This document shows, piece by piece, positions 9,449-58,715 of a stretch of DNA of 62,881 nt. Both the position numbers and the translations under genes were made by a program. The first letter of the stretch is position 1; each line of letters begins with the position of its first letter. Under the pieces are notes generated by a model, which saw nothing but the letters and a program-made list of their open reading frames with translations, did no database searches and was not told where the DNA came from. The stretch comes from Nostoc linckia z4 (lineage in GTDB: Bacteria > Cyanobacteriota > Cyanobacteriia > Cyanobacteriales > Nostocaceae): NCBI RefSeq assembly GCF_002608075.1, contig NZ_LAHA01000035.1, positions 14,453-77,333 of the forward strand, given 5' to 3'.

Positions 9449-9460
9449 CAGCTTTTGAAT

Positions 9461-33044: not shown

Positions 33045-33045
33045 T

Positions 33046-37124: not shown

Positions 37125-37197
37125 GATGTGGGCTATTAGCTGTATGAATCTAGATGTAGAGAGGTTGCAATGCAACGTCTCTACAAGGATTTTGATA

Positions 37198-40909: not shown

Positions 40910-41519
40910 ATTGGTAATTCATATTCGTAAAAGCTACTTAAAATTTTCTTTTGTCATCAGCAATATCTCCTTCAAAAGGTTGAACCCCGCTAGCTGGATA
41001 ATCATCATCCTTGGGTGCAAAAATTCTGCTAACAGCAGTTAATATGTAGTTGATGATTTTTCCGAAAAATTCTTGAATTGAGTTGATAAATTGCCGTATT
41101 TTTGTAGAAATTTTCATAAAATAATTCCTTGCTCAGACGTTTTCCATTTAACTTTCCCGTCAACAGTCAACAATCAACACTCAACAACCACCACAATTGA
41201 TTATGCTTTTTTAGCGTCCATTATTTTATACTTGCAAGCATCATATAGTAATCCGATTTGATTCCTGAAATTATCTGCGTAGGTAGGGAACAGGGAATAG
41301 GGAACAGGGAACAGAAAAGAAGGGTATAGATGTGTAATGAATCTTGTTCAAAAATCAAATAGGAGTCCTATACTTTATATACAATCAAAATAAATTATCT
41401 CTACTCCAAGAGTGAGTTTTGTGAGTAATTTAGTCAAAAGTATTAGTAATAATTTCCCTCCAAAGAAAGAATAAACTACCAAGGATGATAGCCAGAATTA
41501 GGTAGTTTAATCTAATGAT

Positions 41520-43979
41520 TTGACAATAGTCAGTACTCTATCTGCCTCCGTTTGTGATGTGCGGGGGTCTTTTGCTATGAACAAGCAGGCTGCGAAAATT
41601 TTTTATCACCATAAATCACAGGCATCAGTAGCAAGTTTTTTTACTTTTACTGCCGTGTCTGCTCCCTTGGCAATCTCTTTGATTGCTAATCCAGTGTTGG
41701 CTCAATCATCGAATGCTAATGTTAATACTTCTTTTCCGGTTCCGCAATCCATTCCTAGTGGAACACAAGTGCGGATTAATGGTACAACCAGCATGGAAAA
41801 GATTAATCAAGCATTAGCGCAGGAGTTTCAAAGCAAGTATCCTAATACAAATGTCACCACTGGATATGATGGAACAGATGCGTCTTTGAAAGCATTGCCA
41901 AATGGACAGATTGATTTAGCGGCCATTGGTCGTTCGTTAACTGACTCGGAGAAAGCCCAAGGGCTTGCAAGTATTCCCATTACTCGGAATAAAATTGCGG
42001 TAATTGTCGGCAAGGATAATCCATATATCAACAATCTGACTTCTGAACAATTTGCTCAAATCTTTCGGGGTGATGTTAATGACTGGTCACAAGTAGGGGG
42101 TTCTGCCCACAGAATTCGCTTGATCGATCGCCCAGAAAATAGCGACTTGCGGCAAGCATTCCAGAATTATCCTGTTTTTCAAAAAGCTCCTTTTAAAACA
42201 GGTAAAAATGCGATTCAAGTTTCCGCAGACAGTACAGAAGCGGTAGTCAAAGAATTAGGGACAGATGGTATTGGATATGCGATCGCCGACGGGGTAATCA
42301 ATAACCCCAATGTAAAAATTGTGGCACTACATAATGTTCTGCCCACCGATACCCGTTATCCCTTTTCTCAACCTTTGGCTTATGCCTACGATAAATTTAA
42401 TCCAAGTCCTGCTGCCACGGCATTTTTAGGCTTTGCTACTGCACCGGCTAATGGGGGAATCATTGAACAAGCCAGGGTGAACAATGCCAACCAAACAGCA
42501 TCCACGCCTACAGGAGCAATTCCTCCCACCACTCGGACTGTAACACAACCCCAACGTGAATCTTCATGGTGGTGGTTATTGCTGATTCCTTTACTAGGTG
42601 GATTATTATGGTGGTTAAGTCGGCGCAACGCAACTTTAACCCCCACTGGAGTTGCTACACCTGTTTTAGGGAGCGGCCAAACCTCAGAGAATCGTATCGT
42701 CCTCACACCTCGAAGTTGCAGAGATGCCTATGTTTACTGGGAAGTTTCCAATCAAGTAAAAGAAGATTTGCAACGGCAAGGTGGACGTGGTTTGAAGTTG
42801 CGTCTTTATGATGTCACTGATATTGACGACATAGACCGGCAAACACCACATAGCATGAAGGAATTTGATGTAGATGGACAAGCGCGAGATATTCACCTGC
42901 CCATCGAGCTAGATAACCGGGATTATGTTGTTGAGCTTGGTTGTTTGAGCAACAATAATCGCTGGTTAAACATCGCTCGTTCGGCGAAAGTGCGAGTTCC
43001 TGCTTGCCAACCGGTTGGCGTTATCCCTACAGTGGCAAGTGGTGTTGCGGCTGCTTCTTTAGGGGACAATAACTCCATAACTACAAAAGATGAAGGTCGT
43101 GTAATTTTAGTACCTCGTAACTCCCAAGATGTCTATGCTTATTGGGAAATTCCCGAAGCACGCAAGGCAGAACTGCAACGCCAGGGGGGAAGACAGTTGG
43201 CGCTTCGTCTTTATGACAGTACAGGCATGGATTTGGAACGGCGGAGTGCCCAAAGTTTTCGGCAGTTTGAGTGTGACGAATCAACACAAGATTTACACAT
43301 TCCCATTGCCCAAAGCGATCGCGACTATGTGGCAGAATTAGGATACATTACTGCCAATGGGCATTGGCTAAAAGTGGCTGAGTCAGCACCGATAAAAGTT
43401 TCATCCACTGTTAAAGAAGGTAGTGCCGTCACATCCTCTGATGGGGCAACTAACTTGCCACAGTTGCAACGGAGCGATCGCACATCTAACCCAATTGTTG
43501 ATGTCAGAAATAGAGTTAACGAAACCATTGCAGAAACTACACCTATGGTAGGAGGCTTGGGAGCCACTGCTCACTCACTTTTAGGCAGAAAACAAGGTGA
43601 TGGCTTACAAACACCTTTAAGCGATCGCTCGACCATCAAAAGAGATTGCCGGATTATCCTAGTACCTCGCAACACGAAGGATGCTTATGCCTACTGGGAA
43701 ATTGCAGATGAGTACAAAGCAGCTGCCCGCATACAAGGCGGACGCAGATTTATCCTGCGAATTCACGATGTCACAAATTTAGACATTGAACATCAGTCGC
43801 CCCATAGTACTCAAGAATATCCATGCAATGAACGCGAACAAGACAAACACGTGGCCATTCCAGCAAGCGATCGCGATTATCTTGCAGAAATAGGTTATTA
43901 CACAGATGATGGCCGCTGGCTGAGTATTATTCGCTCCTTTGACGTTCACATACCATCCAATAAGCTGTTGAGCATTTAA
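41520..43979 (+). CDS. Membrane-anchored protein: PstS-like periplasmic phosphate-binding domain plus three about 150-aa DUF4912-like repeats
   Basis: N-terminal PBP type-2 pattern (GTTSMEKINQ...IDLAAIGRSLTDSEK). W-rich TM segment (WWWLLLIPLLGGLLWWL). Three repeats of ILVPRN..DAYAYWEI...QGGR.L.LR.YDVT...DYVAELGY...W. Confidence 0.55.
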   Translation: MTIVSTLSASVCDVRGSFAMNKQAAKIFYHHKSQASVASFFTFTAVSAPLAISLIANPVLAQSSNANVNTSFPVPQSIPSGTQVRINGTTSMEKINQALAQEFQSKYPNTNVTTGYDGTDASLKALPNGQIDLAAIGRSLTDSEKAQGLASIPITRNKIAVIVGKDNPYINNLTSEQFAQIFRGDVNDWSQVGGSAHRIRLIDRPENSDLRQAFQNYPVFQKAPFKTGKNAIQVSADSTEAVVKELGTDGIGYAIADGVINNPNVKIVALHNVLPTDTRYPFSQPLAYAYDKFNPSPAATAFLGFATAPANGGIIEQARVNNANQTASTPTGAIPPTTRTVTQPQRESSWWWLLLIPLLGGLLWWLSRRNATLTPTGVATPVLGSGQTSENRIVLTPRSCRDAYVYWEVSNQVKEDLQRQGGRGLKLRLYDVTDIDDIDRQTPHSMKEFDVDGQARDIHLPIELDNRDYVVELGCLSNNNRWLNIARSAKVRVPACQPVGVIPTVASGVAAASLGDNNSITTKDEGRVILVPRNSQDVYAYWEIPEARKAELQRQGGRQLALRLYDSTGMDLERRSAQSFRQFECDESTQDLHIPIAQSDRDYVAELGYITANGHWLKVAESAPIKVSSTVKEGSAVTSSDGATNLPQLQRSDRTSNPIVDVRNRVNETIAETTPMVGGLGATAHSLLGRKQGDGLQTPLSDRSTIKRDCRIILVPRNTKDAYAYWEIADEYKAAARIQGGRRFILRIHDVTNLDIEHQSPHSTQEYPCNEREQDKHVAIPASDRDYLAEIGYYTDDGRWLSIIRSFDVHIPSNKLLSI

Positions 43980-44020
43980 TCAGCAGTCATCCGCCGATTA
44001 TATCAAGTCATGAATTTTAA

Positions 44021-44560
44021 ATGAGAGAGGAATTAATCATGGGACTTTTTTTTGAGGTTCTCAGTGCCATTAATAATCCCAATCAACGCGGAAATGTTAC
44101 TCAGTTAGAGTCAATTATCAACTCAATTCAACAAGTGGCAACTAGTCGAGGCATTCAACCATCTCAAATGCAAAATATTATGTCAGTTGTGGGTAATATG
44201 CTTCGTCCAGTACTTAGGCAGCAGCAGTCATTACCGGATGGAAATCAGTTACAAAATCTGATTAGTCAAGCTGGTAGTACTAGCACCAGTGGAGTGGGAA
44301 TGCAATCTTTACTCTCACCTCAGTTGCAGCAGCAAATTGTTCAAACAGTTTCCCAAACAACAAGAATCAGCCCGAATGTAATTGACGCTATTTTGCCCAC
44401 AATCATTTCAGCCGTACAAAGTATGCTCAGTATGGGTTCTACCAGTGGTGGATCTGTAAATTCAAATTCTATTTTGCATACTTTTTTAGATAGCGATCGC
44501 GATGGCGACACCGACTTAAGTGACGTTCTGAGATTTGGCGATCGTTTTCTTCATCCATAA
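44021..44560 (+). CDS. Hypothetical Gln-rich protein with a C-terminal Asp-rich (DSDRDGDTDLSD) motif
   Basis: ORF only. An EF-hand-like acidic loop is possible. Confidence 0.3.
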   Translation: MREELIMGLFFEVLSAINNPNQRGNVTQLESIINSIQQVATSRGIQPSQMQNIMSVVGNMLRPVLRQQQSLPDGNQLQNLISQAGSTSTSGVGMQSLLSPQLQQQIVQTVSQTTRISPNVIDAILPTIISAVQSMLSMGSTSGGSVNSNSILHTFLDSDRDGDTDLSDVLRFGDRFLHP

Positions 44561-44840
44561 TATACATACTGGGTTGCGATAGCGATGATTCCCACAGCCA
44601 TTGCACCCCACCCCTTGACAAGATGCAGCTGGTGAATAGAGGATGAGACCCCTCGTCGAGCCACAAATTGGTTTGTAGAGACGTAGCATTGCTACGTCTC
44701 TACATAGGGTGGAATGACTTCTGCAAGAAGTCAATTGTGAAGTTATTTTGCTGGTAATATAATATACGAAGTTTAATCCTTAACAGGTTATACAGTTGAA
44801 CAGATAGTTACAACTAATAATCTTATTTGTTAATAAACTT

Positions 44841-45488
44841 ATGCAGATAAATCAAGTCATTGAAACCTACGATCGCGGTGCGGTGGATTATGACGCAATC
44901 ATGAAGCGTTACTGGCACATTGAACGCGAACCGCTAATTGCTTCCTTACAGCTTCAGCCAGGACAAACCGTACTCGATGCTGCGGTGGGAACTGGTCTTA
45001 ATCTTAGTGCTTATCCCCAAGGAGTACATGTTGTCGGTGTCGATCTTTCTCATAAGATGATCGATGAAGCACGTGAAAAAACTGTATCCGCAGACATCAC
45101 CTTCAAGGTGTCGGATATCTGCAATTTAGATTTTCCTGATAATAACTTTGATGCAGCAGCATCGGGATTTACCCTGTGTGTTGTTGACGATCCCGTTCGT
45201 GCTTTGGAAGAAATTTTAAGAGTTACCAAACCTGGTGCTTTAATTGCCATTCTTGATTATTGCAAATCACGAGATCCAGAGATTGCAAAATGGCAAGAAT
45301 TAATATCTGATGCAGCCTCACAACTAGGTTTTCCCACTGACAAAATCAAGTGGAATGCATTGATGGATTATGACGAATTAATTTACAACAGTAAGCTGAA
45401 CATTGAAGTGCTGGTAGATAATCGCATAGAAAGTGCCAACCCATTTTCATGTGGTTGTCAATTACTATTGAAAAATTCCAAAGTTTAG
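44841..45488 (+). CDS. Class I SAM-dependent methyltransferase
   Basis: Motif I VLDAAVGTGLNL, post-I acidic residue and motif II-like DAAASGFTL. Confidence 0.6.
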   Translation: MQINQVIETYDRGAVDYDAIMKRYWHIEREPLIASLQLQPGQTVLDAAVGTGLNLSAYPQGVHVVGVDLSHKMIDEAREKTVSADITFKVSDICNLDFPDNNFDAAASGFTLCVVDDPVRALEEILRVTKPGALIAILDYCKSRDPEIAKWQELISDAASQLGFPTDKIKWNALMDYDELIYNSKLNIEVLVDNRIESANPFSCGCQLLLKNSKV

Positions 45489-45674
45489 AAACTATTTATA
45501 ACGTAAATCTTAACTAGATGCGTTACGGCTGAACGCCTGACACACCGCCATACAAGATGGTGTGTTAGGCGCTTAGTTCATATTTTTCTTAACGGGGAAC
45601 AGGGAACTCTTAACAGACTTTGCTGTTGCCTGTTGCCCGTTCCCTGTTCCCTCTCCCGAAGGGAGTTGACAATT

Positions 45675-46061
45675 CTATACCTGTAAAAGAATTCGTGCTG
45701 CAATACCAGTCACATGATGAAGTGCATCTAGAAGTCTAGTTTCGTTTTCAGGTTTTTCTAATTCTTTATTCAAGGAATTAATACTTGCTTTTAAATCTGA
45801 TTGAAGCCTTTCAATTTGACCAGCAATTTTTTCCAAGATAGCATTCTCTATCTTAGCTATAGCGACAATTAAATCTCCTCTAGCTTGCACAAAAGATTTT
45901 GCTAAACACAAATTGGTTTCTGATGTGCAAATTAATATAACTTCTTCAAGAGAACCAAGCTTGAATTCAACATCTCTGAGTTCTTCAAGTAGTTCTTCTC
46001 TAAGAATATCAATTGGGTTTAGGCGTTCCGGAATAAAAGTAGACATTTTTTCGATCCTCAA
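45675..46061 (-). CDS. Small coiled-coil protein; paralog of the 46214..46597 product
   Basis: Heptad-rich. C-terminal ...GIAARILLQV parallels ...GIVSRIVLLAR in its neighbour. Confidence 0.4.
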   Translation of the reverse strand: MRIEKMSTFIPERLNPIDILREELLEELRDVEFKLGSLEEVILICTSETNLCLAKSFVQARGDLIVAIAKIENAILEKIAGQIERLQSDLKASINSLNKELEKPENETRLLDALHHVTGIAARILLQV

Positions 46062-46213
46062 AAATTACAATTATTAATGCTTAAAGGTAAGTTGATAGTA
46101 CTTACGCATTGACCGAAAATTCCAAATGTGAATGAGTTTAAAAACCATATCTTTCGTATGGGTTTAGCATTGCTAAACCCAAACTAATTAGCTGATATAT
46201 ACCTTGAATATTC

Positions 46214-46597
46214 TTATCTAGCTAAAAGAACGATTCTTGAAACAATACCGATTACCCGCTCTATAGTTTGCAAAACTGTGATGGTATTTTCTAATTTTGC
46301 TAGCTCTTTTTTTAAGTTAGCAATGCCTGATTCTAAGTCTCCATTAAGTTTTTCAAGTCGTTCTGCAATACTGCCTATTGATGCATCTTGTAGCTTTCGT
46401 TTGCAAAGTATATAATCTTTTCTGGCTTCAAGATATCTTTTCCATTTAACTTCATCTTTATCATTTTCAAATTCTTTTTTAAATTTTAAGAATGTTCTAA
46501 CAGAATCTAAATCTACTTGTGTTTCTTCTAATTCTCTAAGCCGATTGTTTCTGATGTTATCTACATTAGTTAGACGACTAATAATTAGACTTGTCAT
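46214..46597 (-). CDS. Small coiled-coil protein (paralog of 45675..46061)
   Basis: See the paralog. The start abuts the stop of the upstream lipoprotein gene. Confidence 0.4.
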   Translation of the reverse strand: MTSLIISRLTNVDNIRNNRLRELEETQVDLDSVRTFLKFKKEFENDKDEVKWKRYLEARKDYILCKRKLQDASIGSIAERLEKLNGDLESGIANLKKELAKLENTITVLQTIERVIGIVSRIVLLAR

Positions 46598-46599
46598 AT

Positions 46600-47475
46600 T
46601 TACTCCTTGGTTTTTAATGTTTCAATTACAGATAAAAGATCTTCAATGTCTGTTAGTAATGCGTTAATCCGTCCACTACTAGACCGACCCTCTACAAAAT
46701 CTTGAAATATGTTTTGAAAATCTCCCAGTGCTTGACTTGCATTTTCAAGTTCTGCGGCAGTGAGTTCTTGAGTTAATAGTTCTCTGCGAGTAGCTATCCA
46801 TGTATCTTCATCAGCGATGGGTGTGGGTTGGAGCAATGGGTTAATGACAAGTCTTAGTTCTTGTCTATCTTGAATTCCCTTTAAATCACCTTTAATTTGA
46901 GTACTCAGAACATTGAGTAACTCTTGCTGTGTCTTTAATTCAAGCATAATAGTCTGATTGCGTTTTTGCAGTTCTTCTTTAAGAGCGCCCCGAATCTTAG
47001 AACTGACGATTAGTTTTCCTATACCTTGAAAAACCTCTTTATTTTCTATTAAGTTGCTTTCTCGTAAGGTCTGACCTATTGTATTTAAATTATCTACTAC
47101 CCCTCCAATAGCAGTTTGTGTTCGCTCAGGAGCATCAGACCCAGCTAAGTCCTGTAGTAATTTAAAATACTTACTCAGCAAGCTGTTGTGTTTTTTGAGC
47201 CGATTAATTAAGTCAATTCTATTACTATCTGAATCTGAAAATTCATTGTAATCATCAGATGTTTGATTATTTTCTCTGTCTTGTAATAAAAGTTCTTCAG
47301 AGCTTTCGTCAATTCGAGTTACAACAGCTAGATCTAATAGTTGGTTGAGAGCTTTGGAATAATTAGTTCCTGCCTGTGCTAGTTTTTTATATTCGTCAGT
47401 GGAACGACAAGCACTCAAACAAGTTGTGGCTATTGCTACAGCAATTATTATTGGAAAGTGAATTTTATTTTTCAT
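46600..47475 (-). CDS. Putative lipoprotein with coiled-coil regions
   Basis: Signal peptide followed by a lipobox-like LSAC. Helical, heptad-rich remainder. Confidence 0.45.
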   Translation of the reverse strand: MKNKIHFPIIIAVAIATTCLSACRSTDEYKKLAQAGTNYSKALNQLLDLAVVTRIDESSEELLLQDRENNQTSDDYNEFSDSDSNRIDLINRLKKHNSLLSKYFKLLQDLAGSDAPERTQTAIGGVVDNLNTIGQTLRESNLIENKEVFQGIGKLIVSSKIRGALKEELQKRNQTIMLELKTQQELLNVLSTQIKGDLKGIQDRQELRLVINPLLQPTPIADEDTWIATRRELLTQELTAAELENASQALGDFQNIFQDFVEGRSSSGRINALLTDIEDLLSVIETLKTKE

Positions 47476-47551
47476 CTATTGTTTTCAAAGTTGCCCAAAA
47501 ATTATCGCATCAAATGTAGTTTTTGATTGAAAAATAGTAAAATAGATTAAA

Positions 47552-49222
47552 TTATCCATTTTTTAAATTCAGAAAATTTTGTCGAATCCACAATCTAAAT
47601 ATGCGTTTTAAAAGCCACTTTGTTAAGGGTTTTCCAATAAATATCCGGACATTCAGCTTAATAAAACTCCATAACTTAGATAAACGAGAACCATTATTTT
47701 TCATATCAAGCGGTTCTAGCCTGTCATTGATTAGATCCACCAAAGATTCTAAACGGAAGCTTAACTGATTTACAATTTCTTGACGTGTTTCTATGTCAAC
47801 CTCTGCCATTAACCTTCGTAATTCTGCAAGTTGATCTCGTTTGATGGCGTCATTATCTTGTAGTTGTTCTCCTTCTGGTGAACGAGGTTTTGCTAATTGA
47901 CTTAACTCTTTTTTTGCTTCATCCCAAGTATTTAAATTTTTATCGTTAACCTTACAATTAACTATCCACTCAAGAGGTGGCATTTTATTAAGTTCAAGGT
48001 TGAGTAAATCTTGGAGTTGACTCTTTGCTTGAAGATTGGACAGTTCAAATTGAGTGCGTTCCCGACCAATGTTGTAATCATAAGCCCGGAATTTCTTTTC
48101 AAGAAATCCAGCAAAGGCTGAGAAGACATCGCCAATTAACTCAAAGTCATTAGCTGTAATGGAAAATACTGGAGCATCCATTTCTTCCATAATCCAATCT
48201 TGGAAGCGAGACTGGTGAAAAATTGAACTCAGCAATGCAATTCCTGTTACCAAGAGATCGTTATCTTTTTTGATAAAAGGATTTTCGGGTAATTGGCGTT
48301 GACCTGGTGCAATATAAAGGTAATATCTTTTATCAGATAAATCTTGATTTTGATCGATGCGATCCACGAGGAGTTTAGCCATACCAATAGGCTCATTTTC
48401 AAAAACTCCACCATCTGTGTACAGATACTCCTCATTACGATCGCGACGCTTACCAAATCCACCAAAACGTCGAATTTTCCGAAGTTTAAAAGCGAAGGGA
48501 AATGCACCAGATGATAGACCGGCTTCGCGTAACTCACTCCAGTTAGTATCTCTAAGTTTTTTCCATTCTATTGACTCGCGTCCTGTTCTTGGATCTCTTA
48601 TTGTCTCTCGATCTATTTCATCAAGCGTCACATTCCCAAATCCATCGCGACGAGCTAGACACACAAATTGATCCTTATAACGGGTATATGCAAACTTTAG
48701 TGTTCCTTCTTTTCGGCCTTCACGAGCGTAATCAGTTGTAAGAGGGAAAGTATAGCCAGACAAGTTGGACATAGCTATACCAACATAAATCTCAGACGCA
48801 GCAGCCGGATGCTTTTGGTTGATTTGAACACGATCTTGCAGATATTTATTCCCAATTTTTTCAACAACTGCTGTTTGTAAAAGTGAGTATTTTTGATCTT
48901 CTTTTTCAACTTTAATTAATTCCCGAATATCAACTTCATCAACCCATGCATTGTAGAGTGGATTATTATATGGTTTGCGTAAAGACTGGTCTGGACGAAA
49001 GGGTGCAGGCTGATCGCCACAAAGAAGATGTTGGACTAAAATACAAGCCGTCATCCCACCCGCCGAAGCACCTGTAATTACATCAATTTCAATGGGTTCT
49101 TCATGATTTTTTATATCTTCGTTATGTCTGGCGATCGCTTCCAAAATTTCATACATAACGCCAGCTTCATAACTGCCAAGTGATACTGCTCCACTGATAA
49201 CAACGGCAAGCTTTTTGGGCAT
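47552..49222 (-). CDS. Patatin-like phospholipase with a C-terminal about 200-aa extension
   Basis: Gly-rich oxyanion loop (VVISGAVSLGSYEAG), GxSxG nucleophile (ITGASAGGM) and a downstream catalytic DGG (YLYTDGGVFENEP). Confidence 0.7.
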   Translation of the reverse strand: MPKKLAVVISGAVSLGSYEAGVMYEILEAIARHNEDIKNHEEPIEIDVITGASAGGMTACILVQHLLCGDQPAPFRPDQSLRKPYNNPLYNAWVDEVDIRELIKVEKEDQKYSLLQTAVVEKIGNKYLQDRVQINQKHPAAASEIYVGIAMSNLSGYTFPLTTDYAREGRKEGTLKFAYTRYKDQFVCLARRDGFGNVTLDEIDRETIRDPRTGRESIEWKKLRDTNWSELREAGLSSGAFPFAFKLRKIRRFGGFGKRRDRNEEYLYTDGGVFENEPIGMAKLLVDRIDQNQDLSDKRYYLYIAPGQRQLPENPFIKKDNDLLVTGIALLSSIFHQSRFQDWIMEEMDAPVFSITANDFELIGDVFSAFAGFLEKKFRAYDYNIGRERTQFELSNLQAKSQLQDLLNLELNKMPPLEWIVNCKVNDKNLNTWDEAKKELSQLAKPRSPEGEQLQDNDAIKRDQLAELRRLMAEVDIETRQEIVNQLSFRLESLVDLINDRLEPLDMKNNGSRLSKLWSFIKLNVRIFIGKPLTKWLLKRIFRLWIRQNFLNLKNG

Positions 49223-49751
49223 TAATTTCCCTCACTTCATGTCTAAAAATTTAGAATAAACGGAATTTTTTTGTATAAATGCTTTTTTTGGGCAGTTTTT
49301 TAACACTTTTCCGTAGATTTCCTGATTGTATCAGCAATTATTTTTTTTAAAACTACAGATGTATTAAAAAATATTACACAGATGGTAATTGAATTTTAGA
49401 ATTTTTTTATATCTCTGGACATAGAAAAATAAGATGCCGCTCTGGAACTTATTTGCCAACAAGCATAGATAAATCAGGTTTAAAATATTCTCTAATGAAA
49501 TAAATAAAAAGAGTCTTGGGTTACTACATCCAAAAAAGCTGCTTTAGTAGATGTAAAATATAGCTAGAGGTAATTTAATAAAGTTAAAATAAATAAAGTT
49601 TTCTTTACACATGAATGCTTTTCAGACTAAAGCCAGTATTATTCTTAATAAAAAACAAAAAATATACATCAAAGTCATCAAAATTTTTAATTTATGAAAT
49701 TGTGGTGCGTTGCATTTGAGAACAAGACACCACAATCTACATCATTTAGTT

Positions 49752-50549
49752 TTACAAATGATTTTTAAACAATTCTAAAACATGTTGCCAAGCATCAGGA
49801 GCAGCTTCAGGATTGTAACTTGGATGTTGTTCCATAAATGGGTACTTATCTTTGAAAAATCCGGCGAAAAATCCGTGCCCGGCATCGTATCTAAATACAC
49901 GATGATTGATTTGATGTTTTTTTAATTCTGCTTCAATTTGTTCAGTTTCCTCCTGAGAAATAAATGTATCTCTTGTACCGAAAAAGGCATAAATAGTACC
50001 TTGAATTTGTGAAGTGCGATTAATAGTTGGAGTTTCTTCACCATAACTAGAAGTGGTAATTCCAGCACCGTAAAACGAAGCTGTAGCTTTGATATCCGGG
50101 AAAGTTGCAGCGATGTAAGCAACATGACCGCCAAAACAAAAACCAACGACACCAATGGCATCATGTTTAACATTGGGTAAAGTTTTTAAGTAGGCGATCG
50201 CCGCTTGAATATCACTTAAGATATCTTGATACTTTACTTGTTGATAGTATTCCAATCCCAGCCGATAGGCTTCTGGACTAAATCCAACATCTTCAGCACT
50301 AAGATCCGCTGCAAAACCAGGAGCAATCCGTTGATACATCGCGGGAGCTATTACTACATAACCTTGTTTAGCAATTAATTCAGTGATGTCTCGAATGTTA
50401 TTATTGATGCCAAAAATTTCTGGAAAAACGATAACGGCGGCAAAGGTTCCTTCATGTGCTGGTTGAGCTAAGTAAGCATCAATTTCTAAGTTATTGTTAG
50501 GTATTTTGACTTTTGCGGTGTTAATTTCGATGTTTGTGATTTCTACCAT
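49752..50549 (-). CDS. Dienelactone hydrolase-family alpha/beta hydrolase
   Basis: GFCFGG nucleophile-elbow region, plus conserved His and Asp positions (YDAGHGF). Confidence 0.65.
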   Translation of the reverse strand: MVEITNIEINTAKVKIPNNNLEIDAYLAQPAHEGTFAAVIVFPEIFGINNNIRDITELIAKQGYVVIAPAMYQRIAPGFAADLSAEDVGFSPEAYRLGLEYYQQVKYQDILSDIQAAIAYLKTLPNVKHDAIGVVGFCFGGHVAYIAATFPDIKATASFYGAGITTSSYGEETPTINRTSQIQGTIYAFFGTRDTFISQEETEQIEAELKKHQINHRVFRYDAGHGFFAGFFKDKYPFMEQHPSYNPEAAPDAWQHVLELFKNHL

Positions 50550-50948
50550 CTTTTTTCAGGTTATTTGATACCAACTTTTCTATTTTGGCTGTTTTTTGAC
50601 ACGGATGATAAACTGGCATTGCATTTAAGTCAGAAATGTTTTGGTGTTGATTGTTGACTGATGACGGTTGACTGTTGACAGTATGAGTGAGTGTATAATT
50701 TAAAAGTTTAATAATCTGCAACAAGCTAATTTTTTCCGTTTACACAGCAACCACAAGCTAGACGGTCGTATGATAAATCACACAACCAAGGCATGAAAAT
50801 ATTTATTTCTCAGTCAACAGTCAACATTGAATTTATAACTTTTGAATAGACAACATCTCGAACTTCTGGATGATACTAAGGGTTTTTGATTTGTGCGACC
50901 TTACAAAGGTAAGCATAAAGACTCAATATTAAGAAGCACAAAAAAACT

Positions 50949-51488
50949 ATGCCAGATCAAACATTTAGAGCAAACATACCAGAAGTTGACCCAACGGAGA
51001 TTGAAGATACTCGAACTGCCATCGCTGACGAACATCGTTCATTTTTAGAAAAAGTCATGGTGAAAGGTGGGTTTGCAGACATCTATGACGCCAGAGACTT
51101 TACCGAAGTTGTGTTTCGCGTCATGCGTGATTTGATGACAACAGAAGCAAGCGATCGCGTCGAGGGAGAACTGCATAAAGAAGCCGTATCTACCGATGAA
51201 AAAGCACTCCAGTTTGATATTGCCGATCTTTGGAAAGATACCAATCCAATTGTGGGATTTTTAAGCCGAGTTCGTCCACCCTGGCAAGGCCCTGGAATTT
51301 TCAAAATCGATTCCGATCGCTTTTTGTTCCGAGTTGCTAATGAAGGGGGCAAACCAGAAACAGTTGACCGAGAACAGGCAGTAAAAGCCGTATTTTCTGC
51401 CACCAAAGACGAACTTTCCCAAGAAAGAATTGAAGAAATTGCTAGTTGGCTACCTGACTATGTACGTCAGCTTTGGCAACAAGCTTAA
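50949..51488 (+). CDS. Hypothetical protein (possibly DUF2267-like)
   Basis: Weak resemblance only. Confidence 0.3.
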   Translation: MPDQTFRANIPEVDPTEIEDTRTAIADEHRSFLEKVMVKGGFADIYDARDFTEVVFRVMRDLMTTEASDRVEGELHKEAVSTDEKALQFDIADLWKDTNPIVGFLSRVRPPWQGPGIFKIDSDRFLFRVANEGGKPETVDREQAVKAVFSATKDELSQERIEEIASWLPDYVRQLWQQA

Positions 51489-51555
51489 TTACAAGTGTGA
51501 AAAAGTCAAGCCTGTTTGCAGTTGACGATAATTGCAAGCAGACTTTTTATATAAA

Positions 51556-51924
51556 TCACTCCGCAGACTTCACCGTTTGATTTGCCACCAAGCGTGGTTT
51601 CTTTCGTTCTGACTTACGCGTTCCACCAGCCATACCATATTCATCACTATTTTTGCCATAGCGAGACGCAACACTCAGCAGCATGTGTTCAGAATAATCA
51701 TTCAACACACGTTCAGCTTCTTCTAATGCATTCTGCGTTTTATCTATCATCGTTCGTGCTTGATTATGGGCGGCTAGCTTTTCTCGCAAATCCTGAATCA
51801 TAGTATTGTAACTAGTTATTGATAACCCATTACCAAAATCTAAGTCAGGCTTAATCGCCTGCATTCCTTCAACCCGTCGTTCAGCTTTCGTCAGTGCAAC
51901 TGAGTTTCGTCTGCGTTGCGGCAT
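51556..51924 (-). CDS. Hypothetical protein; paralog of the 36699..37124 gene
   Basis: See the paralog alignment. Preceded on its strand by the 20-bp tandem repeat array at 52121..52298. Confidence 0.5.
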   Translation of the reverse strand: MPQRRRNSVALTKAERRVEGMQAIKPDLDFGNGLSITSYNTMIQDLREKLAAHNQARTMIDKTQNALEEAERVLNDYSEHMLLSVASRYGKNSDEYGMAGGTRKSERKKPRLVANQTVKSAE

Positions 51925-52120
51925 AAAGTTTTCCTTTTTGGATTAATTTATAAAGAACGCTAATGTTCCTTGACACTGAGTTCTTTATATACCACTAAAT
52001 TACGCAATTAGCAGATGCACCAGCCTGAGTAAAGCTACATAATTTATAGAACATTCACAATACAGCATAAATACGGTTATATTTGCTGAAATTTTTGAAT
52101 ATTAAGGGATTTACGACTTG

Positions 52121-52298
52121 AAAACTTGATTTAGAAGTCCAAAACTTGATTTAGAAGTTCAAAACTTGATTTAGAAGTCCAAAACTTGATTTAGAAGTTC
52201 AAAACTTGATTTACAAGTCCAAAACTTGATTTACAAGTCCAAAACTTGATTTACAAGTCCAAAACTTGATTTACAAGTCCAAAACTTGATTTACCAGC
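52121..52298. repeat. Tandem direct repeat, 20-bp unit (aaaacttgattta[gc]aagt[ct]c), about 9 copies
   Basis: Units start every 20 bp from 52121 to 52281. The first four have tagaag, the next four tacaag, and the last is degenerate. Confidence 0.9.
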
Positions 52299-52349
52299 AA
52301 GCTGTTGCACAGCACAGCCTAAATTAGGGATGCGATCGCGCTTATTTTC

Positions 52350-52685
52350 TCAGGCTACGCCATATTGCGTATATTGGCGCAAGTGTGATGGCTGTAGTCC
52401 TAAAACAATATCCTCTCTGGGTACTCCCATTTCAGTCAACTCTTGGGCAATTTGGATATCAGTCATATTACGCTGAATCCATATTTTTTCATCTTTAATA
52501 TCGAGATGTATCACACAATTATAAATGCGATCGTATCCATACCAGCCAATCTCTAAAATCTGGTAATGGTCTCGCGCTGTATCGAATATCAGTTGAATTT
52601 CAACATCTTCCTCTGAAGGTTGGTAACTGCTATATTTAGTTAATAACTTTTGAATATATTCACGATATTGGTCTAGCTTTGCCAT
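52350..52685 (-). CDS. xisI: XisI (accessory factor of fdxN-element excision)
   Basis: 111 aa. The N-terminus MAKLDQYREYIQKLLTKY and the size match XisI. Overlaps xisH by 13 nt, as in Anabaena. Confidence 0.75.
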   Translation of the reverse strand: MAKLDQYREYIQKLLTKYSSYQPSEEDVEIQLIFDTARDHYQILEIGWYGYDRIYNCVIHLDIKDEKIWIQRNMTDIQIAQELTEMGVPREDIVLGLQPSHLRQYTQYGVA

Positions 52686-53089
52686 TGCACAATCACCTCA
52701 TCATTTGGATCGTAAACTATTAATTTAACTTGATATTCTTGTACTGAACTTTGGGCAAAGTCCCGGCTAAATAGCGATCTATACGTTGACAGTGGAACTG
52801 CTAGGAACAAAACTCTCTCAGGTTCTCTGAGTCGCAAAGCTAATCGATAATTGAGAAACTGCCCCAAAGCCGCATGGTAGTCAAAAAGTTCTGAATCCCC
52901 TAAAAAACTTTTGATTTCAACAGCAATTTTCTCTGTTCCTCGCTCAGCTGCTAAGATTTGTTCCGCACCTAAATCGATTGACATTTTATCTTTGCCAAAC
53001 TTAACCACTAGCGGATCGTGCGTAATAATCCACCCTTCTTTTTCTAGTCCCCGTTTAACGGCTTCATGAAAAATGTCTTTTGCAGACAC
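52673..53089 (-). CDS. xisH: XisH (accessory factor of fdxN-element excision; endonuclease-like fold)
   Basis: 138 aa. MSAKDIFHEAVKRGLEKEGWIITHDPL matches the XisH N-terminus. Paired with xisI. Confidence 0.75.
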   Translation of the reverse strand: MSAKDIFHEAVKRGLEKEGWIITHDPLVVKFGKDKMSIDLGAEQILAAERGTEKIAVEIKSFLGDSELFDYHAALGQFLNYRLALRLREPERVLFLAVPLSTYRSLFSRDFAQSSVQEYQVKLIVYDPNDEVIVQWQS

Positions 53090-53309
53090 GGACAGAACCA
53101 GAACCCAATAACCTTATGATACCGAACTATGATTATGCTGCATTGCACTTTGCGATAAATATAGGAGGAATGCGATCGCCTGCTGATACAATGAAGGTGC
53201 GTTGCCCTTTGCGACAACGCACCCTACATTAGAGATGCGATATTATAATTTGATTTCCTGTCTTATTAGAATTACCTCAAGATTCAGGATTGCTATATCG
53301 TTTACATTA

Positions 53310-54332
53310 TCATTCCAAAACTGTAGATGATGAGGATTTAGATACTTGAGTCATTTGATACTCGATCTGCGTAATTGCAGACATTATACTGTATTCATGC
53401 CCTTCTAATAGAGCATTTTTAATCTCTCTAACTTGCTCTAGGAGAGCTTTTCTAAGATATGGCTTTTGTTTAGATACGTAAGAATGATGACTCCAAATAT
53501 CAGAACCAATGATAAGAAATCCTGCTATCCAACCAGCAGCACACTTCGCTGCAAATGATGTTATTGCCTTGCCTAATCCTGCTTTAAGAGCAGTTTTACA
53601 GCCTAACTTCGCTAAAATTTTAGTGGCTTGTTTGCCGACATAAGCAATAAATTCTGTAGAAGATAATGTCATTTTCATGCCATATACTGCGCCTGTTATT
53701 GCCATGTCCTTTCCCCCCTTTTCAATCCAATATGCGATGTTACTAAACTGATAAATAATTCCCCCTTTTTCATAAGTTATCTTGCTGAGTTCCATGCTTA
53801 ATTCCTGAAACTCAACATTAGAAAGTTCATACTTGCATTGAATTTCCATAAAACCTTTTGCTAGTTCTACTGCATAAACATCAACCGTCTGTGTGAGTAT
53901 ATTCTGCATTTTTCTTTCCATCTGAGTAGGTGATAAAATATATACTTCAATCTTTTGTGCAACTTCTGTCTGTAGTGACTCTTTAGAAATAAGAGACATT
54001 AGACCTATTTTCTTTTGATAAAAATAATCAAAATATTCTTCCATGAAAACTTCTATATTTGGTTGCAGAGATTGAATCCACTCTTCTAAATGCTTATCTG
54101 CAAAGTCCTTGGCTTTAATTTTTGATTTCTCAAAAACAGCTAAAATTTCTTCAAGGAATTTCTCGCGGCTAAAATGTCTGTTAACTCTGTGCTTTTTATT
54201 TGAACCGCCAGGATTGTCTGACAAACTATATCGAGCAGTAAACAAGTAGATAAAGCACCAAAATATCAATAACATGGCTGTACCATAGCCTAGTACACTG
54301 CCGAAGGAATCAAGAAAATGGGAAAGCATCAC
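53310..54332 (-). CDS. Hypothetical membrane-associated protein
   Basis: N-terminal TM helix and a C-terminal hydrophobic region. AT-rich codon usage. Co-oriented directly downstream of the P-loop NTPase gene. Confidence 0.35.
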   Translation of the reverse strand: MMLSHFLDSFGSVLGYGTAMLLIFWCFIYLFTARYSLSDNPGGSNKKHRVNRHFSREKFLEEILAVFEKSKIKAKDFADKHLEEWIQSLQPNIEVFMEEYFDYFYQKKIGLMSLISKESLQTEVAQKIEVYILSPTQMERKMQNILTQTVDVYAVELAKGFMEIQCKYELSNVEFQELSMELSKITYEKGGIIYQFSNIAYWIEKGGKDMAITGAVYGMKMTLSSTEFIAYVGKQATKILAKLGCKTALKAGLGKAITSFAAKCAAGWIAGFLIIGSDIWSHHSYVSKQKPYLRKALLEQVREIKNALLEGHEYSIMSAITQIEYQMTQVSKSSSSTVLE

Positions 54333-54527
54333 TTACTCGTAATGAATTACGCAGATAGCTTACCAAAACACTGATTTCGGAAGTTTCGGGAGAAAGGTAG
54401 TCCGCACTCAACTACTCCTACAAGGATTTCCAGACCTCAAGAACAAAAAATCCTTAGGTTCTCATGAGGTTTTTTCGTAAATTTTTTGTAAATTTTTTAT
54501 AAATTTTTATTAAAAATGGGGGCTAGG

Positions 54528-56225
54528 TTAATCTTGAAGGAAACGTAACAAGTCTGAATTTTGTAAAAAGTAACTAAAACTAGGATGATATAACCTATAG
54601 TGCAACTTTCCGTCCACTTCTTGTTTATATAGAAACTGTTTCCACTCCTCTAGTATTAACTGAAGTTCATATTGAGATTCAAATAAAGAAACCATATCAG
54701 TGAAAGATATTAGGCTAACATGACCTGAACTAGCATTAGCTAACTTACGAAGAAGCCGCTTGTGTCTGATATCACTTTTGTGATTAATATTCATACGGCG
54801 TAAATGACTCTCGTAATACCCTCTCAAACCTTCTGGAAGATTATCAAGACTATCCAAGTTTTTATAAACGCCTCGCTCAATATCTACTAATACATTTTTT
54901 AAATACCTAAAGTTTCTTTGACTTTTAAGTGTAAGAGTTTCAATAAGTTTTTCTTCACTTTCAAAAAGTCTTTCTTCACTACATGTTTTATCATCTTGTG
55001 AAGTGCGAAGCTTTTCTCTTCTGTCTAAATACTTTTTGATATATGTTCTACAATCTTCCTTCCATGTGTCACCAATAAGGCAGCTAATATCTTCTATCAT
55101 TAAAGGCACTTCAATTTCTAAGAAAATATTTTTTGGACGCTGAGACATAAAGAAAAAAATACCTTCTGGAAGATATTCCGGCAATTTTAGTATATTTTCT
55201 GACTCGTTGCTTAAATATACTTCGTCCAAAGCATCTATGACAATAACTAACTGTGACTTGTGCTTATGTAAAACTTTTTTACTTATCTCCTCAAGTAAAC
55301 TATTAAGTAGCGAAATATCAACATTTTCTAACTTTTCTTTAAAATGTCTTAGTTGATCATAATATTTATGATATAATTGGTTACAAATACTTTCTAGAAA
55401 ATCATAAATCTGGTTAAGTCCTTGGGGTTGCTGTACAAAAAAACAGGGACATTTATTTTCTAATACATACTTAGCTAGTATTGCTGTTTTTCCAACTCCA
55501 GGATCGCCCTGCAATATAAAATATCCTTGTGAATGATCTTTTTGAAATTTTTTAAATCTCTCAATAATATCTTTTCTTTCAATAAAATCTTCTGGATCTG
55601 TATGGTACTTAATTAAAGTCTGAAATTCTAAAGGAGGTTCAAATATATTGCTATTAATAAAGGAATTTGAATTGCCAAAAAATTCATTTTCATAACGTTC
55701 TTTTAGGGATTTAATAGTTTCATCGTTACTTTCGCTGATAACAATATTGTTGACAGTAAATCTCCAATCTTTAGACCCCTGCCTTGTAGATTTATGGCGA
55801 TCATCTTTTAGAAGTTTGTGTTCATCTGCATCCTTTATTACGTCTCCAAGTGATTTAATTACAGTTTCCTTTTGAAAATCGTTGGATATATCAGGATAAT
55901 TTTTACAAAAATCCTGTGATTCTTGTGAGCATATTGAATTTTTTACATACGAATTAACTAGATTTTCTAAATTTTTTAGAGTGCAACAAACTTCAATAGT
56001 TTTATTCCTTATATCATCACTAATGTTTCCCTTGAAATCCGGATATGGTTTATTTTCATCCTCACCTTGATTGCGAATGTAGTCTTTTAATGCCATAATA
56101 AGTAAAATAGCCCGTTGCATTTTTTTGTTACTAATTTTTCTGTCTTCTTTCGATGCGTTCATATTTGATAATATATATAAATAAGAGTTTGCACATTTTT
56201 TAGGTAAGTATATATAAATATACAT
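54528..56225 (-). CDS. P-loop NTPase of the NACHT/STAND-like class with a unique about 230-aa N-terminal domain (start probably at an internal Met)
   Basis: Walker A GDPGVGKTAILAKY, Walker B LVIVIDALDEV, a helical C-terminal region. Strongly AT-rich. Confidence 0.55.
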   Translation of the reverse strand: MYIYIYLPKKCANSYLYILSNMNASKEDRKISNKKMQRAILLIMALKDYIRNQGEDENKPYPDFKGNISDDIRNKTIEVCCTLKNLENLVNSYVKNSICSQESQDFCKNYPDISNDFQKETVIKSLGDVIKDADEHKLLKDDRHKSTRQGSKDWRFTVNNIVISESNDETIKSLKERYENEFFGNSNSFINSNIFEPPLEFQTLIKYHTDPEDFIERKDIIERFKKFQKDHSQGYFILQGDPGVGKTAILAKYVLENKCPCFFVQQPQGLNQIYDFLESICNQLYHKYYDQLRHFKEKLENVDISLLNSLLEEISKKVLHKHKSQLVIVIDALDEVYLSNESENILKLPEYLPEGIFFFMSQRPKNIFLEIEVPLMIEDISCLIGDTWKEDCRTYIKKYLDRREKLRTSQDDKTCSEERLFESEEKLIETLTLKSQRNFRYLKNVLVDIERGVYKNLDSLDNLPEGLRGYYESHLRRMNINHKSDIRHKRLLRKLANASSGHVSLISFTDMVSLFESQYELQLILEEWKQFLYKQEVDGKLHYRLYHPSFSYFLQNSDLLRFLQD

Positions 56226-56381
56226 AAAAAATTATTATACATTTAGTCTTTGAATAAACTCTTTGCTTTATATTTACTTTACAAATAAAATTCAACAGGT
56301 TTATCAATGATTATTTTAGAACGAGTTTTTTACCTGACGGGGCAATAAGCACCTCAGAATCCTTATCATGTATAAATTTAA

Positions 56382-56600
56382 CTATATGAACTGATTGCGT
56401 GTTATTGTCGCATCTGTGATGCTAATACTTCCACTGCGCGATCGCCTCGTAATTGCTGCTATAATTTCCACACCAGTTATTGCAGCAATAAATACCTCAT
56501 TGTTGAGAGTTGGATCGAATAAGCCTAACACCCAAGCAGATCCAGTTTCACTTATATAACGCTTAACTAATGCGCTACTATCTATGAAGTATCTTGCCAT
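56382..56600 (-). pseudogene. vapC: Truncated PIN-domain (VapC-like) toxin gene
   Basis: PIN N-terminal signature MARYFIDSSALVKRY, but only 72 aa before a stop. Only about 150 bp remain before the start of the neighbouring AT-rich NTPase gene. Confidence 0.4.
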
Positions 56601-56873
56601 TTAACGGCGTTCCTCAATGATAGTTTCAGAGACAGGCTTTCCCTCGACCTGAATTAGTCTTCGTTCAGCTATTGGTTCGTAAGCAAAATGCTTAATTTGC
56701 TTTACTAAGCCAGAATCGATTAAAGCTTGGTGAAATGCTGTTTGCTTAAGATTTTCCTCTTTAACAGCAAGATACTTTTGAATTGTTTGGCTAAGTTGTT
56801 GAAGCTCTGTTGTTTCCAGTGTCTCAAGTTGCTTAAGTATTTGGTTTAAGGTTTCTAGTGCCATACCTTTCAA
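56601..56873 (-). CDS. Putative antitoxin partner of the truncated vapC
   Basis: 90-aa ORF. Its stop directly abuts the PIN ORF start. Confidence 0.35.
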   Translation of the reverse strand: MKGMALETLNQILKQLETLETTELQQLSQTIQKYLAVKEENLKQTAFHQALIDSGLVKQIKHFAYEPIAERRLIQVEGKPVSETIIEERR

Positions 56874-57049
56874 ATAATTATTGCTTTTATAGAGTTTTTT
56901 GCTTAACAGTTGAATTTAATAAATCTAAAATTTAGATACACTTAGCTCGAATATCTAACAAAGTGGAAACCTATACAGATGAGTTACTATAAGCTTATAT
57001 TAGTAGTAAATTTGACAATTGAACACACTACACAAAATTTTTTAACAAT

Positions 57050-58351
57050 TCAACTTCGCTTATAAACGATTTCCATTTTCAACTTCTCAACCTCTAATCT
57101 CAACTTTTCATTTTCCATTCTCAATTTAGCATTTTCTTCCCTAATTAACTCAACTTCATTCCTCTTACTCAACGCCTGATTCATTGCTAACTTTCGCATA
57201 TCTAGCGAAAACCATCGCTGATAAGTTTGCGTGTGAACTTGGACGCTATGACCTAGATTATCTGCTGCTGCTTTAATTGGAATTCCTAAAATATGCGCTC
57301 GAATTGCCCAAGCGTGGCGTAAATCATAAGGCTTAAAATCTAAGCCGATTTTACGAAACCACCAACTGACTCGTTGTGTTAATGCCGTGATTTCTGCATA
57401 ATTAGTATTATCTTTTTTACTAATTGCCGTTGCCAGCATTTCTAAATATTTGGGATTCCTTAAATCAAATTCCTCAATCCATTGTTTATATAAAGGTAAA
57501 GCTTCTCTCTCGCCAGTCTTACAATCTTTATGAACCTTCCAGGTTAAATCCAAATTTTCTTGACTTAACCACCAATCGATGTCAGGATTAATAAAAAGCT
57601 CGCGCGGTCGTAAACCGAAAACTGCTAACATTCCATAAGTCCAGCGCCAAAGCTGCCAGCTATCTTGGACATTTTGGTTAACTTGATTGCCTCTGGTATT
57701 TAAGTATTGTTCAAACTTGCCAATCCCCTCAGCTATTTCTGCATCAGTCGGTATATTGCGGGAATTATTCTCTGGCATTTTGGAGTATTTTGATAAATCG
57801 ATTTCGATTTTGAACGTCTGACAAAATACAGCGATCGCTCTTGCTGCATTATACTTAGACCATTCCTTATCGATTCTTTCAATCGCATTTATCAAATTCT
57901 CAGAAGTCGCCAAATCAGCAGGATTAGTAAATCGCTTAGTTCGGGAAATATAATAAAAAAAAGTATGTTCGCTTTTAGTCGTCCGTTTGTGAGTTTTAAA
58001 ATATTCATCTTCAAATTTTTCCAGCAATTCGCCAATTGTTTTACAATCTTTTTTAATTGCCTCATTGCCTAAATATTTTTCATTCCATGCAAAAGTTTTA
58101 CGAGCAATTAACTTTCCTAACTCATAAGCTTCTTCCTCAGCCGTTTTTAACCCATCCAAATTAGCAGGAATATTCAAGCTGAGATTGTATTGCTTTCTAC
58201 CAGTGCCATTTTTATCCTTGTCCCCAGGTTTAATCGGTAACGTAGCGCGTAATTGCAGACTTCCATTAGATTCTCGAATTGTTACCTTAGTCTTTGCAGA
58301 CTTCAAACGCAGATTTACCGTCTCTAATTCCAGTAATACTTTTGATTTCAT
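57050..58351 (-). CDS. xisA: Site-specific tyrosine recombinase XisA (nifD-element excisase)
   Basis: C-terminal catalytic region with R...HxxR...Y motifs (DLRHAWAIRAHILG; QTYQRWF). Located at the nifK-proximal end of the element. Confidence 0.85.
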   Translation of the reverse strand: MKSKVLLELETVNLRLKSAKTKVTIRESNGSLQLRATLPIKPGDKDKNGTGRKQYNLSLNIPANLDGLKTAEEEAYELGKLIARKTFAWNEKYLGNEAIKKDCKTIGELLEKFEDEYFKTHKRTTKSEHTFFYYISRTKRFTNPADLATSENLINAIERIDKEWSKYNAARAIAVFCQTFKIEIDLSKYSKMPENNSRNIPTDAEIAEGIGKFEQYLNTRGNQVNQNVQDSWQLWRWTYGMLAVFGLRPRELFINPDIDWWLSQENLDLTWKVHKDCKTGEREALPLYKQWIEEFDLRNPKYLEMLATAISKKDNTNYAEITALTQRVSWWFRKIGLDFKPYDLRHAWAIRAHILGIPIKAAADNLGHSVQVHTQTYQRWFSLDMRKLAMNQALSKRNEVELIREENAKLRMENEKLRLEVEKLKMEIVYKRS

Positions 58352-58715
58352 GTGTTCTGTTTACAGCTTTGCAGACTTGAAGCGAAATAATTCGTAATTT
58401 AAGACTCTTGATTGCGGGCATTGCTGAATTCTTACTCTCTGCGACTCTCTCTTGAAAAGTTCAGATGCCTGCGGCAAGCCCCTTCGGGTCTACGCCGGAA
58501 GCCGGCGCTCCGACTTTTCGCTGCGTCTGTGCGTGAGTAAACTCATATTTTAAATCAGCAACACATAATTACAAATTACGAACTACGAATTCTCCTTTAG
58601 CCTATATTTAGTCTAAAAATAAATGCGTTCTCAACGAACAATGTTTAATTCTGACATTGCTCATTGCAAACATTAACCCCTCTAAAAAAATAAAAGCATT
58701 AAAAGGATTACTCCG

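Follow-up and report, generated by a model that had tools for sequence, protein, structure and literature searches.

In a 62.9-kb stretch of the genome of Nostoc linckia z4 (referred to here as the window; coordinates are positions within it, and L numbers are loci that were fetched for comparison), we found that the 3' end of a vapC toxin gene inside a nifD excision element has been replaced by a 3,145-bp AT-rich segment that carries two genes, one for a NACHT-clade STAND NTPase and one for a 340-amino-acid (340-aa) membrane protein. The structural and evolutionary part of our explanation, that a lineage-specific foreign segment overwrote the 3' half of vapC, is well supported. In its complete form, which we consider probable, the explanation also holds that the segment was acquired by a nontranspositional route, that the NTPase is a switch coupled through effector-associated domain 4 (EAD4), and that the membrane protein is an independent passenger; the functional part is what we infer from comparison with known systems.

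Loss of the vapC 3' end in a nifD element

The features on which this analysis rests are the following.

26206..58715, no strand: nifD excision element, with a copy of the 11-bp direct repeat GGATTACTCCG at either end
57050..58351, minus strand: xisA, the nifD-element recombinase gene, at the right end of the element (XisAC_N and XisAC_2nd domains)
56601..56873, minus strand: intact vapB-like antitoxin gene, with an annotated start at ATG 56864 (87 aa)
56382..56600, minus strand: vapC remnant of 72 codons (71 conserved PIN codons and one foreign codon), then a stop
53242..56386, minus strand: lineage-specific AT-rich cargo block of 3,145 bp, whose limits are homology breakpoints and which replaces the 3' part of vapC
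53131..53241, no strand: small dispersed hairpin repeat at the xisH-side border of the block, with the hairpin core at 53196..53224
52673..53089, minus strand: xisH (PF08814, E = 1e-55), conserved flank
52350..52685, minus strand: xisI (PF08869, E = 4e-45), conserved flank

The location of the vapC/NTPase region within a nifD element, 32,499 bp (~32.5 kb) in length, was not part of an earlier reading of this sequence (the original prediction). The 11-bp repeat occurs exactly twice in the window, at 26206 and 58705, and rejoining nifD across the two copies gives a 500-aa open reading frame (ORF) with the canonical NifD C terminus. With an xisA recombinase, 11-bp direct repeats, and a nifD frame that is restored on excision, the region has all the hallmarks of a nifD element; nifK lies beyond xisA, at 59138, and the distance between the block and xisA is 0.7 kb. 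A scan of 185,579 species-level genomes for XisA yielded 80 Nostocales loci in which this protein is 86 to 95% identical to that of the window. nifD elements are known to carry xisA at one end and to have a gene content that is highly variable through insertions and deletions (Hilton et al. 2016, PMC4874684). The element analyzed here shares the terminal xisA, the 11-bp direct repeats, and the variable content, but its combination of a candidate NACHT-EAD4 protein and a membrane protein is found in none of the 80 other elements. Acquisition of the block appears to be a routine exchange of cargo, as is known for these variable elements, and not a new kind of system.

The vapBC-like pair of the original prediction, with a PIN ORF that stops after 72 aa, is present. 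Its vapB is 68 to 94% identical to the xisA-adjacent gene of 12 related loci, the vapB stop codon TAA immediately precedes the vapC ATG, and a Pfam scan recognized no DNA-binding domain in the vapB product. Among the 80 loci, the genes adjacent to xisA include vapB in 12 and a PIN gene in 13. The arrangement resembles that of VapBC type II toxin-antitoxin systems in that a small upstream gene abuts a PIN gene and the pair is kept beside xisA across related elements, but it differs in that the toxin gene is cut after codon 71 and the antitoxin has no recognizable DNA-binding domain.

Intact PIN orthologues of 154 aa are encoded in five elements (L005, L031, L023, L015, and L020), and the only orthologue that was scored, L005:11752-12216, matches PIN family PF01850 with 25.6 bits against a cut-off of 23.6. 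Residues 1 to 71 of the remnant are 90 to 96% identical to these 154-aa orthologues, codons 72 to 154 (the 3' 83 codons) are absent from the window, and vapB is retained, so that the search for intact homologues maps the breakpoint to codon 71. By itself, the remnant has no Pfam match. The PIN sequence is not taken up again in any of the three minus-strand frames beyond codon 72, and a frameshifted vapC is ruled out on that ground. The remnant keeps the first two conserved acidic residues of the PIN domain and has lost the last two; the third and fourth, which we take to be those of the GYDAIQ and SADN motifs of the orthologue, fall in the missing part. The event orphaned vapB and left a 71-codon PIN stump that is predicted from its sequence to be catalytically dead. 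Because five lineages keep the full 154-aa vapC, the intact gene is the ancestral state. We also found that vapC has been truncated or altered independently, at different codons, in L050, L054, L008, L019, and L012 (L012:11683-12201), all of which keep vapB and lack the block, which indicates recurrent toxin decay with antitoxin retention in these elements.

The block that adjoins the remnant has a GC content of 31.6%, compared to 40.3% for the window, and it is the lowest in GC for its size, with none of 1,069 nonoverlapping windows of the same size as low. The NTPase gene has a GC content of 0.305 and a third-codon-position GC content (GC3) of 0.23, and the corresponding values for the 340-aa gene are 0.352 and 0.29. 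AT-richness is not peculiar to the block, as a gene at 27674..29116 and a small ORF at 46214..46597 in the same element are equally AT-rich. Neither at the DNA nor at the protein level was the NTPase or the 340-aa gene matched in the 80 related xisA loci, including the closest relatives (95% XisA identity), and the block is carried by 13 assemblies, all of them near-identical N. linckia isolates. The checks of composition and of synteny around xisA that had been proposed for the original prediction both came out in its favor, with the provision that other cargo of the element is similarly AT-rich.

Comparison with L012 (Nostoc sp. P12642) defines the ends of the block. Homology extends over window 56941..56387, equivalent to L012 11343..11896, and resumes at window 53241..50828, equivalent to L012 12095..14508, with 3,145 bp in the window at the position where L012 has 198 bp of vapC. 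A five-way alignment places the vapC-side junction after codon 71 (…RNQF/I, then the stop), at window 56387/56386, and the xisH-side junction is the defined end of the dispersed repeat. The block ends have no flanking direct repeats or target-site duplication. They also have no credible terminal inverted repeats, the sole inverted pair near them being 19 nucleotides long and 79% complementary, one of 50 similar chance-level pairs, and the block contains its two genes only, with no transposase, integrase, or recombinase. Lacking target duplication, credible terminal repeats, and a recombinase, a transposon, insertion sequence, or integron cassette was rejected as the vehicle. Because the 3' 83 codons of vapC are gone and there are no target duplication, terminal repeats, or transposase, the event is a replacement (an acquisition plus a deletion), not a clean insertion. 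The original prediction was therefore correct that an AT-rich, co-oriented two-gene block ends inside vapC and disrupts it, and it has to be amended where it spoke of the block as inserted. The 3,145-bp segment took the place of the 3' 83 codons of vapC together with the sequence up to the dispersed repeat upstream of xisH, and in the explanation that we favor it would have done so by illegitimate or repeat-associated recombination, not by transposition.

A different history, in which the block was ancestral to this nifD-element family and lost elsewhere while an unrelated deletion cut vapC, would fit the independent truncations of vapC in the five block-free elements, but it is close to refuted by the absence of the block from 80 of 80 related loci, the closest included, by the full-length vapC of five lineages, by the lowest GC content in the window, and by a homology breakpoint that lies within two codons of the end of the PIN frame.

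The repeat at the xisH-side border has matches in many of the 80 loci, often twice (2 to 4 copies), and most of these matches start exactly at the position equivalent to window 53241. It is single copy in the window and is missing upstream of xisH in L017, L024, L050, and L079; in L012, the same repeat end abuts the truncated vapC. The repeat forms a GC-rich hairpin (GGGTGCGTTG…CAACGCACC) and, since it borders three different cargo arrangements (those of the window, L012, and L005), could represent either a miniature mobile element or a site at which recombination is frequent.

The NACHT-clade NTPase and its N-terminal domain

The larger gene of the block has the following features.

54528..56162, minus strand: NACHT-clade STAND NTPase gene, 544 aa (565 aa for the whole ORF, which reaches 56225)
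55692..56126, minus strand: candidate divergent EAD4, aa 13 to 157 of the NTPase
55485..55508, minus strand: Walker A motif GDPGVGKT, aa 219 to 226, fitting GxxxxGK[ST]
55221..55250, minus strand: Walker B motif and NACHT signature LVIVIDALDE (D[GAS]hDE), aa 305 to 314

The original prediction described this product as a 565-aa, NACHT-like NTPase with Walker A and B motifs and a novel N-terminal domain. Both motifs are intact, but the start at 56162, which is annotated and supported by homology, makes 544 aa the most likely length. The longer ORF begins with 21 additional codons of low-complexity, AT-rich sequence, and homologues align from the annotated start. The protein is 100% identical to VF14_14260 of N. 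linckia z18, which is annotated with 544 aa, and its closest relative outside N. linckia has 39% identity.

The assignment to the NACHT clade was borne out by Pfam, in which the NACHT-type module NPHP3_N (PF24883) matched with 49.7 bits against a cut-off of 24.8. The NTPase also matches AAA_22 and AAA_16, and PF05729 (NACHT) scored 22.5 bits, under its cut-off of 26.7. The D[GAS]hDE signature, present here as DALDE, occurs in 86 of 86 NTPase homologues, and its position after Walker B separates NACHT proteins from other STAND clades (Kibby et al., bioRxiv 10.1101/2022.07.19.500537). The NTPase core is followed by ~150 to 200 repeat-free residues; in this region, where NACHT-clade proteins have a winged-helix extension, homologues carry AAA_lid_TANC1, a match that the NTPase of the window does not have. 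Searches of PADLOC, NCBIfam, and PHROG returned only subthreshold P-loop matches, a sequence search for solved structures found none close to the NTPase, and the 80 xisA loci contain no NACHT gene of its family. A phage origin was rejected, as a search of IMG/VR found no relative of the NTPase. Its sequence features identify the protein as a compact NACHT-clade STAND protein, related to the NLRs, of the bacterial kind.

The N-terminal domain is, by two kinds of profile comparison, probably a divergent EAD4 adaptor and not the novel domain that had been proposed. The EAD4 profile PF19959 aligns over positions 3 to 121 of 123 with E = 1.5e-5 and 25.9 bits (cut-off, 27), and an hhalign comparison with homologues P0026 and P0037, in which EAD4 is strongly matched, gave a probability of 82% and E = 1e-5 over 52 columns. 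What occupies this N-terminal position varies among the 86 homologues, the modules being HEPN_Swt1, TIR, caspase, trypsin, protein kinase, NNH5, EAD10, or EAD4, and this slot is the effector/adaptor position of bacterial NACHT proteins, among whose N-terminal modules EADs have been listed (Kibby et al., bioRxiv 10.1101/2022.07.19.500537). EADs are homotypic coupling adaptors, and EAD4 is among those that recruit effectors (Kaur et al. 2020, PMC7159879). A hidden Markov model (HMM) scan for EAD4 in all ORFs of the window (at least 50 aa) returned nothing below E = 0.03 except the NTPase itself.

In its overall plan, the NTPase resembles the bNACHT proteins (Kibby et al., bioRxiv 10.1101/2022.07.19.500537), which have an N-terminal effector or adaptor, a NACHT module with D[GAS]hDE, and a C-terminal region, and its short, repeat-free C terminus is like that of the bNACHT01-like type. 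It differs from them in that no PADLOC model of the tested bNACHT systems matched and in the 39% identity of its nearest homologue outside N. linckia. The EAD4-like N terminus on a STAND NTPase, and the HEPN, TIR, caspase, and trypsin effectors that paralogues swap in, also recall the EAD-coupled conflict systems of Kaur, Burroughs, Iyer, and Aravind (eLife 2020, PMC7159879; 2021, PMC8195603). In contrast to those systems, the defining second EAD copy on an adjacent effector is absent from the neighboring gene and from the window, and no vWA-MoxR or GTPase core components lie nearby.

The likeness to Avs (AVAST) proteins, also put forward in the original prediction, extends to a P-loop STAND ATPase with an N-terminal effector/adaptor slot and to weak local P-loop matches to the Avs1b and STAND_TPR models. 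The NTPase is a NACHT-type STAND protein, but no model places it among the Avs proteins: the NCBIfam Avs1b model scored 13.7 bits against a cut-off of 1500, the PADLOC Avs1b match is local (aa 207 to 361), and the 544-aa protein is without repeats or a TPR-like sensor arm. Avs proteins are typically over 1000 aa long.

We also noted that the closest NTPase homologues (L003:771-5437 and L004:1066-4177), which are 35 to 37% identical and have the same N-terminal domain, are each followed by a gene for a 428- to 436-aa GTPase (MMR_HSR1/Dynamin_N) with a hydrophobic C-terminal region. The two GTPases are 77% identical to each other, and a conserved NACHT-GTPase pairing may exist in these loci.

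The 340-aa membrane protein and possible roles of the block

The second gene and the gap that precedes it have these features.

53310..54332, minus strand: gene for a membrane-anchored, all-helical protein of 339/340 aa (annotated start, 54329), from an unannotated family
54471..54514, no strand: four 11-bp A/T-tract tandem repeats within the 195-bp gap between the two genes

As the original prediction had it, the 340-aa product is a membrane protein, with a strong N-terminal transmembrane helix at aa 10 to 33 and a weaker hydrophobic segment at aa 256 to 279. It has no match in Pfam, NCBIfam, PADLOC, or PHROG. A word-indexed search found one homologue, 62% identical end to end, and the same kind of search with the family profile found 4 proteins only, while an exhaustive profile search recovered 129 family representatives at 50% clustering. 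The family alignment contains the N-terminal transmembrane helix, a helical domain with a FLDWYFxYWNQQ-like motif, a lysine- and alanine-rich stretch, a short hydrophobic segment that ends in WDxWDH, and a conserved C-terminal helix. An AlphaFold model of the protein has a pLDDT (predicted local distance difference test) score of 75.6, Foldseek with this model gave no significant match (best E = 0.07), and sequence profiles of the family matched nothing in the PDB. The 340-aa protein is not dynamin-like, its likeness to the stalk/paddle region of the dynamin superfamily (MxB, BDLP, Drp1, SynDLP, and IniA) being a generic helical-bundle one: it has no GTPase domain, the Foldseek matches are not significant, and designed helical bundles rank equally high. 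The family was likewise rejected as a homologue of the membrane GTPase that lies beside the closest NTPase homologues, with no homology found.

In 6 of 6 other genomic contexts, members of the 340-aa family have no STAND neighbor. One member lies beside an RHH/PIN pair (L002), and others are isolated or in housekeeping neighborhoods (L086, L088, L089, and L092). In the sixth context, two tandem family paralogues (L091:3836-4885 and 5001-6038) belong to a type III CRISPR-Cas locus, with cas1 on one side and cas6/cas10/csm2 on the other, which hints that some family members are CRISPR-associated accessory proteins. The context of the 62%-identical homologue is chromosomal and has no NTPase.

No RNA families were found in the block with Rfam, and a promoter and terminator scan gave counts no different from those of shuffled sequence. 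The 11-bp repeats in the intergenic gap are arranged head to tail and are TTTTT[CT]GTAAA-like. Helical-repeat spacing of such A/T tracts is typical of bent DNA upstream of promoters.

From its sequence, the NTPase appears complete as an active NACHT switch whose N terminus is an adaptor. By analogy with characterized STAND and NACHT proteins, it would act as a nucleotide-dependent switch in which the short C-terminal region detects a trigger and the NTPase then oligomerizes. The oligomer would recruit an effector with a matching EAD4 through homotypic contacts, following the "EAD principle" (Kaur et al. 2020), and this EAD4-tagged effector would be encoded elsewhere, outside the window. The 340-aa protein is most likely an independent passenger gene and not the cognate effector, because it has no EAD4, because its family has no STAND neighbor in the six contexts, and because the GC contents of the two genes are unlike.

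Several observations weigh against this explanation. Their shared orientation, the gap of only 195 bp, and their arrival in one novel segment give the two genes an operon-like arrangement, and the homologues in L003 and L004 also precede a membrane-associated GTPase, so that there may be a looser theme of a NACHT protein plus a membrane partner. The EAD4 match is under the Pfam cut-off (25.9 versus 27 bits), the hhalign match spans 52 columns only, and the search for an EAD4 partner, which found none, was limited to the window. For the structural part, the truncation of vapC in block-free sister elements means that decay of the toxin gene may have been under way here before the block arrived; truncation may have come first, or both changes may have happened at once.

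If the operon-like arrangement reflected a common function, the two genes would form an abortive-infection module, as the original prediction proposed, in which the NACHT protein senses infection and activates a membrane-damaging partner. We consider this possible but unlikely. The genes are adjacent in one lineage-specific block, the tandem paralogues in the type III CRISPR-Cas locus make a defense-effector role possible for some family members, and the closest NTPase homologues are followed by the membrane-associated GTPase. Against these points, the 340-aa family contains no EAD4 (hhalign probability, 0.2%; HMM E = 9), none of the six other family contexts has a STAND neighbor and several are housekeeping neighborhoods, no NTPase lies beside the 62%-identical homologue, and the partner was seen with none of the 86 NTPase homologues inspected. 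In addition, Foldseek gave no significant structural match (best E = 0.07), which leaves the dynamin-stalk likeness a generic helical-bundle one, and PADLOC gave no match. This part of the original prediction is unsupported: adjacency alone favors the module, and the lack of a shared EAD and of conserved co-occurrence speaks against it.

It is less probable still that the block is inert, hitchhiking DNA whose two genes are recent, nonfunctional or decaying passengers of a selfish element, with no role in the host. In favor of this reading, nifD elements can be dispensed with and show turnover of their cargo (Hilton 2016, PMC4874684), the adjoining vapC has become a pseudogene, as it has in several sister elements, and the 13 carrier assemblies are near-identical, so that their agreement is uninformative on selection. 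However, both ORFs are full length, the NTPase retains Walker A and the NACHT signature, and the 340-aa protein keeps the nearly invariant residues of its family throughout and aligns over its whole length with its nearest homologue at 62% identity.

STAND genes in the xisA-proximal slot and other cargo

In three of the related elements, a different STAND gene occupies the same slot downstream of xisA (L005:12979-16626, L018:11962-15675, and L014:11953-15669). Its product, of 1,215 aa, combines NB-ARC and TPR with an APAF1 winged-helix/helical domain, and in L005 the gene has an intact vapBC pair on one side and xisH on the other. We found no remnants of the L005 NB-ARC gene in the window. Two independent STAND acquisitions among 81 elements are suggestive, but by a rough estimate they are within chance, given the high density of STAND genes in Nostoc genomes. 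We regard it as a long shot that NLR-like genes for cell death or immunity land repeatedly in the xisA-proximal slot, or that the 340-aa family is a new class of defense effector for STAND and type III CRISPR systems. If the landing-site reading were true, excision in heterocysts would uncouple suicide or immune switches from the chromosome of a terminally differentiated cell, and a programmed DNA rearrangement would be tied to the control of immunity.

The analysis provides a cleanly mapped cargo replacement in a nifD element that is excised during development, with breakpoints resolved to the base and empty sites for comparison, and it records two unrelated STAND genes in one slot across different nifD elements. 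It extends the known set of cyanobacterial NLR-related proteins by a candidate EAD4-NACHT protein and draws attention to an unannotated membrane family of 129 clusters at 50% identity with no Pfam, PDB, or PHROG relative. It leaves current views unchanged, since EAD-NACHT proteins have already been described as abundant in cyanobacteria, 58% of which encode NACHT proteins (Kibby et al., bioRxiv 10.1101/2022.07.19.500537), and the cargo of nifD elements was already known to be fluid.

At 32.5 kb, the element is large for a nifD element. The rest of its cargo (26217..52349) includes a methyltransferase-like gene (27674..29116; AT-rich, with 30.1% GC) and genes for an SPFH/Band-7 protein (29241..30779), an RTX-repeat protein (37198..38385), a Cache/HAMP histidine kinase (38696..40909), a PBP-like/DUF4912 protein (41520..43979), and a patatin-like phospholipase (47552..49222). 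Outside the element and upstream of the nif genes, a CRISPR array at 15410..16811, with ~20 repeats of 37 nucleotides (Rfam CRISPR-DR5), adjoins large ORFs at 3831..14528. The element also contains three tRNA genes on the minus strand (31288..31363, 32969..33044, and 33046..33121), a tRNA-Ile with the unusual anticodon TAT and two adjoining genes with the anticodon CAT, all of which would leave the chromosome on excision in heterocysts.

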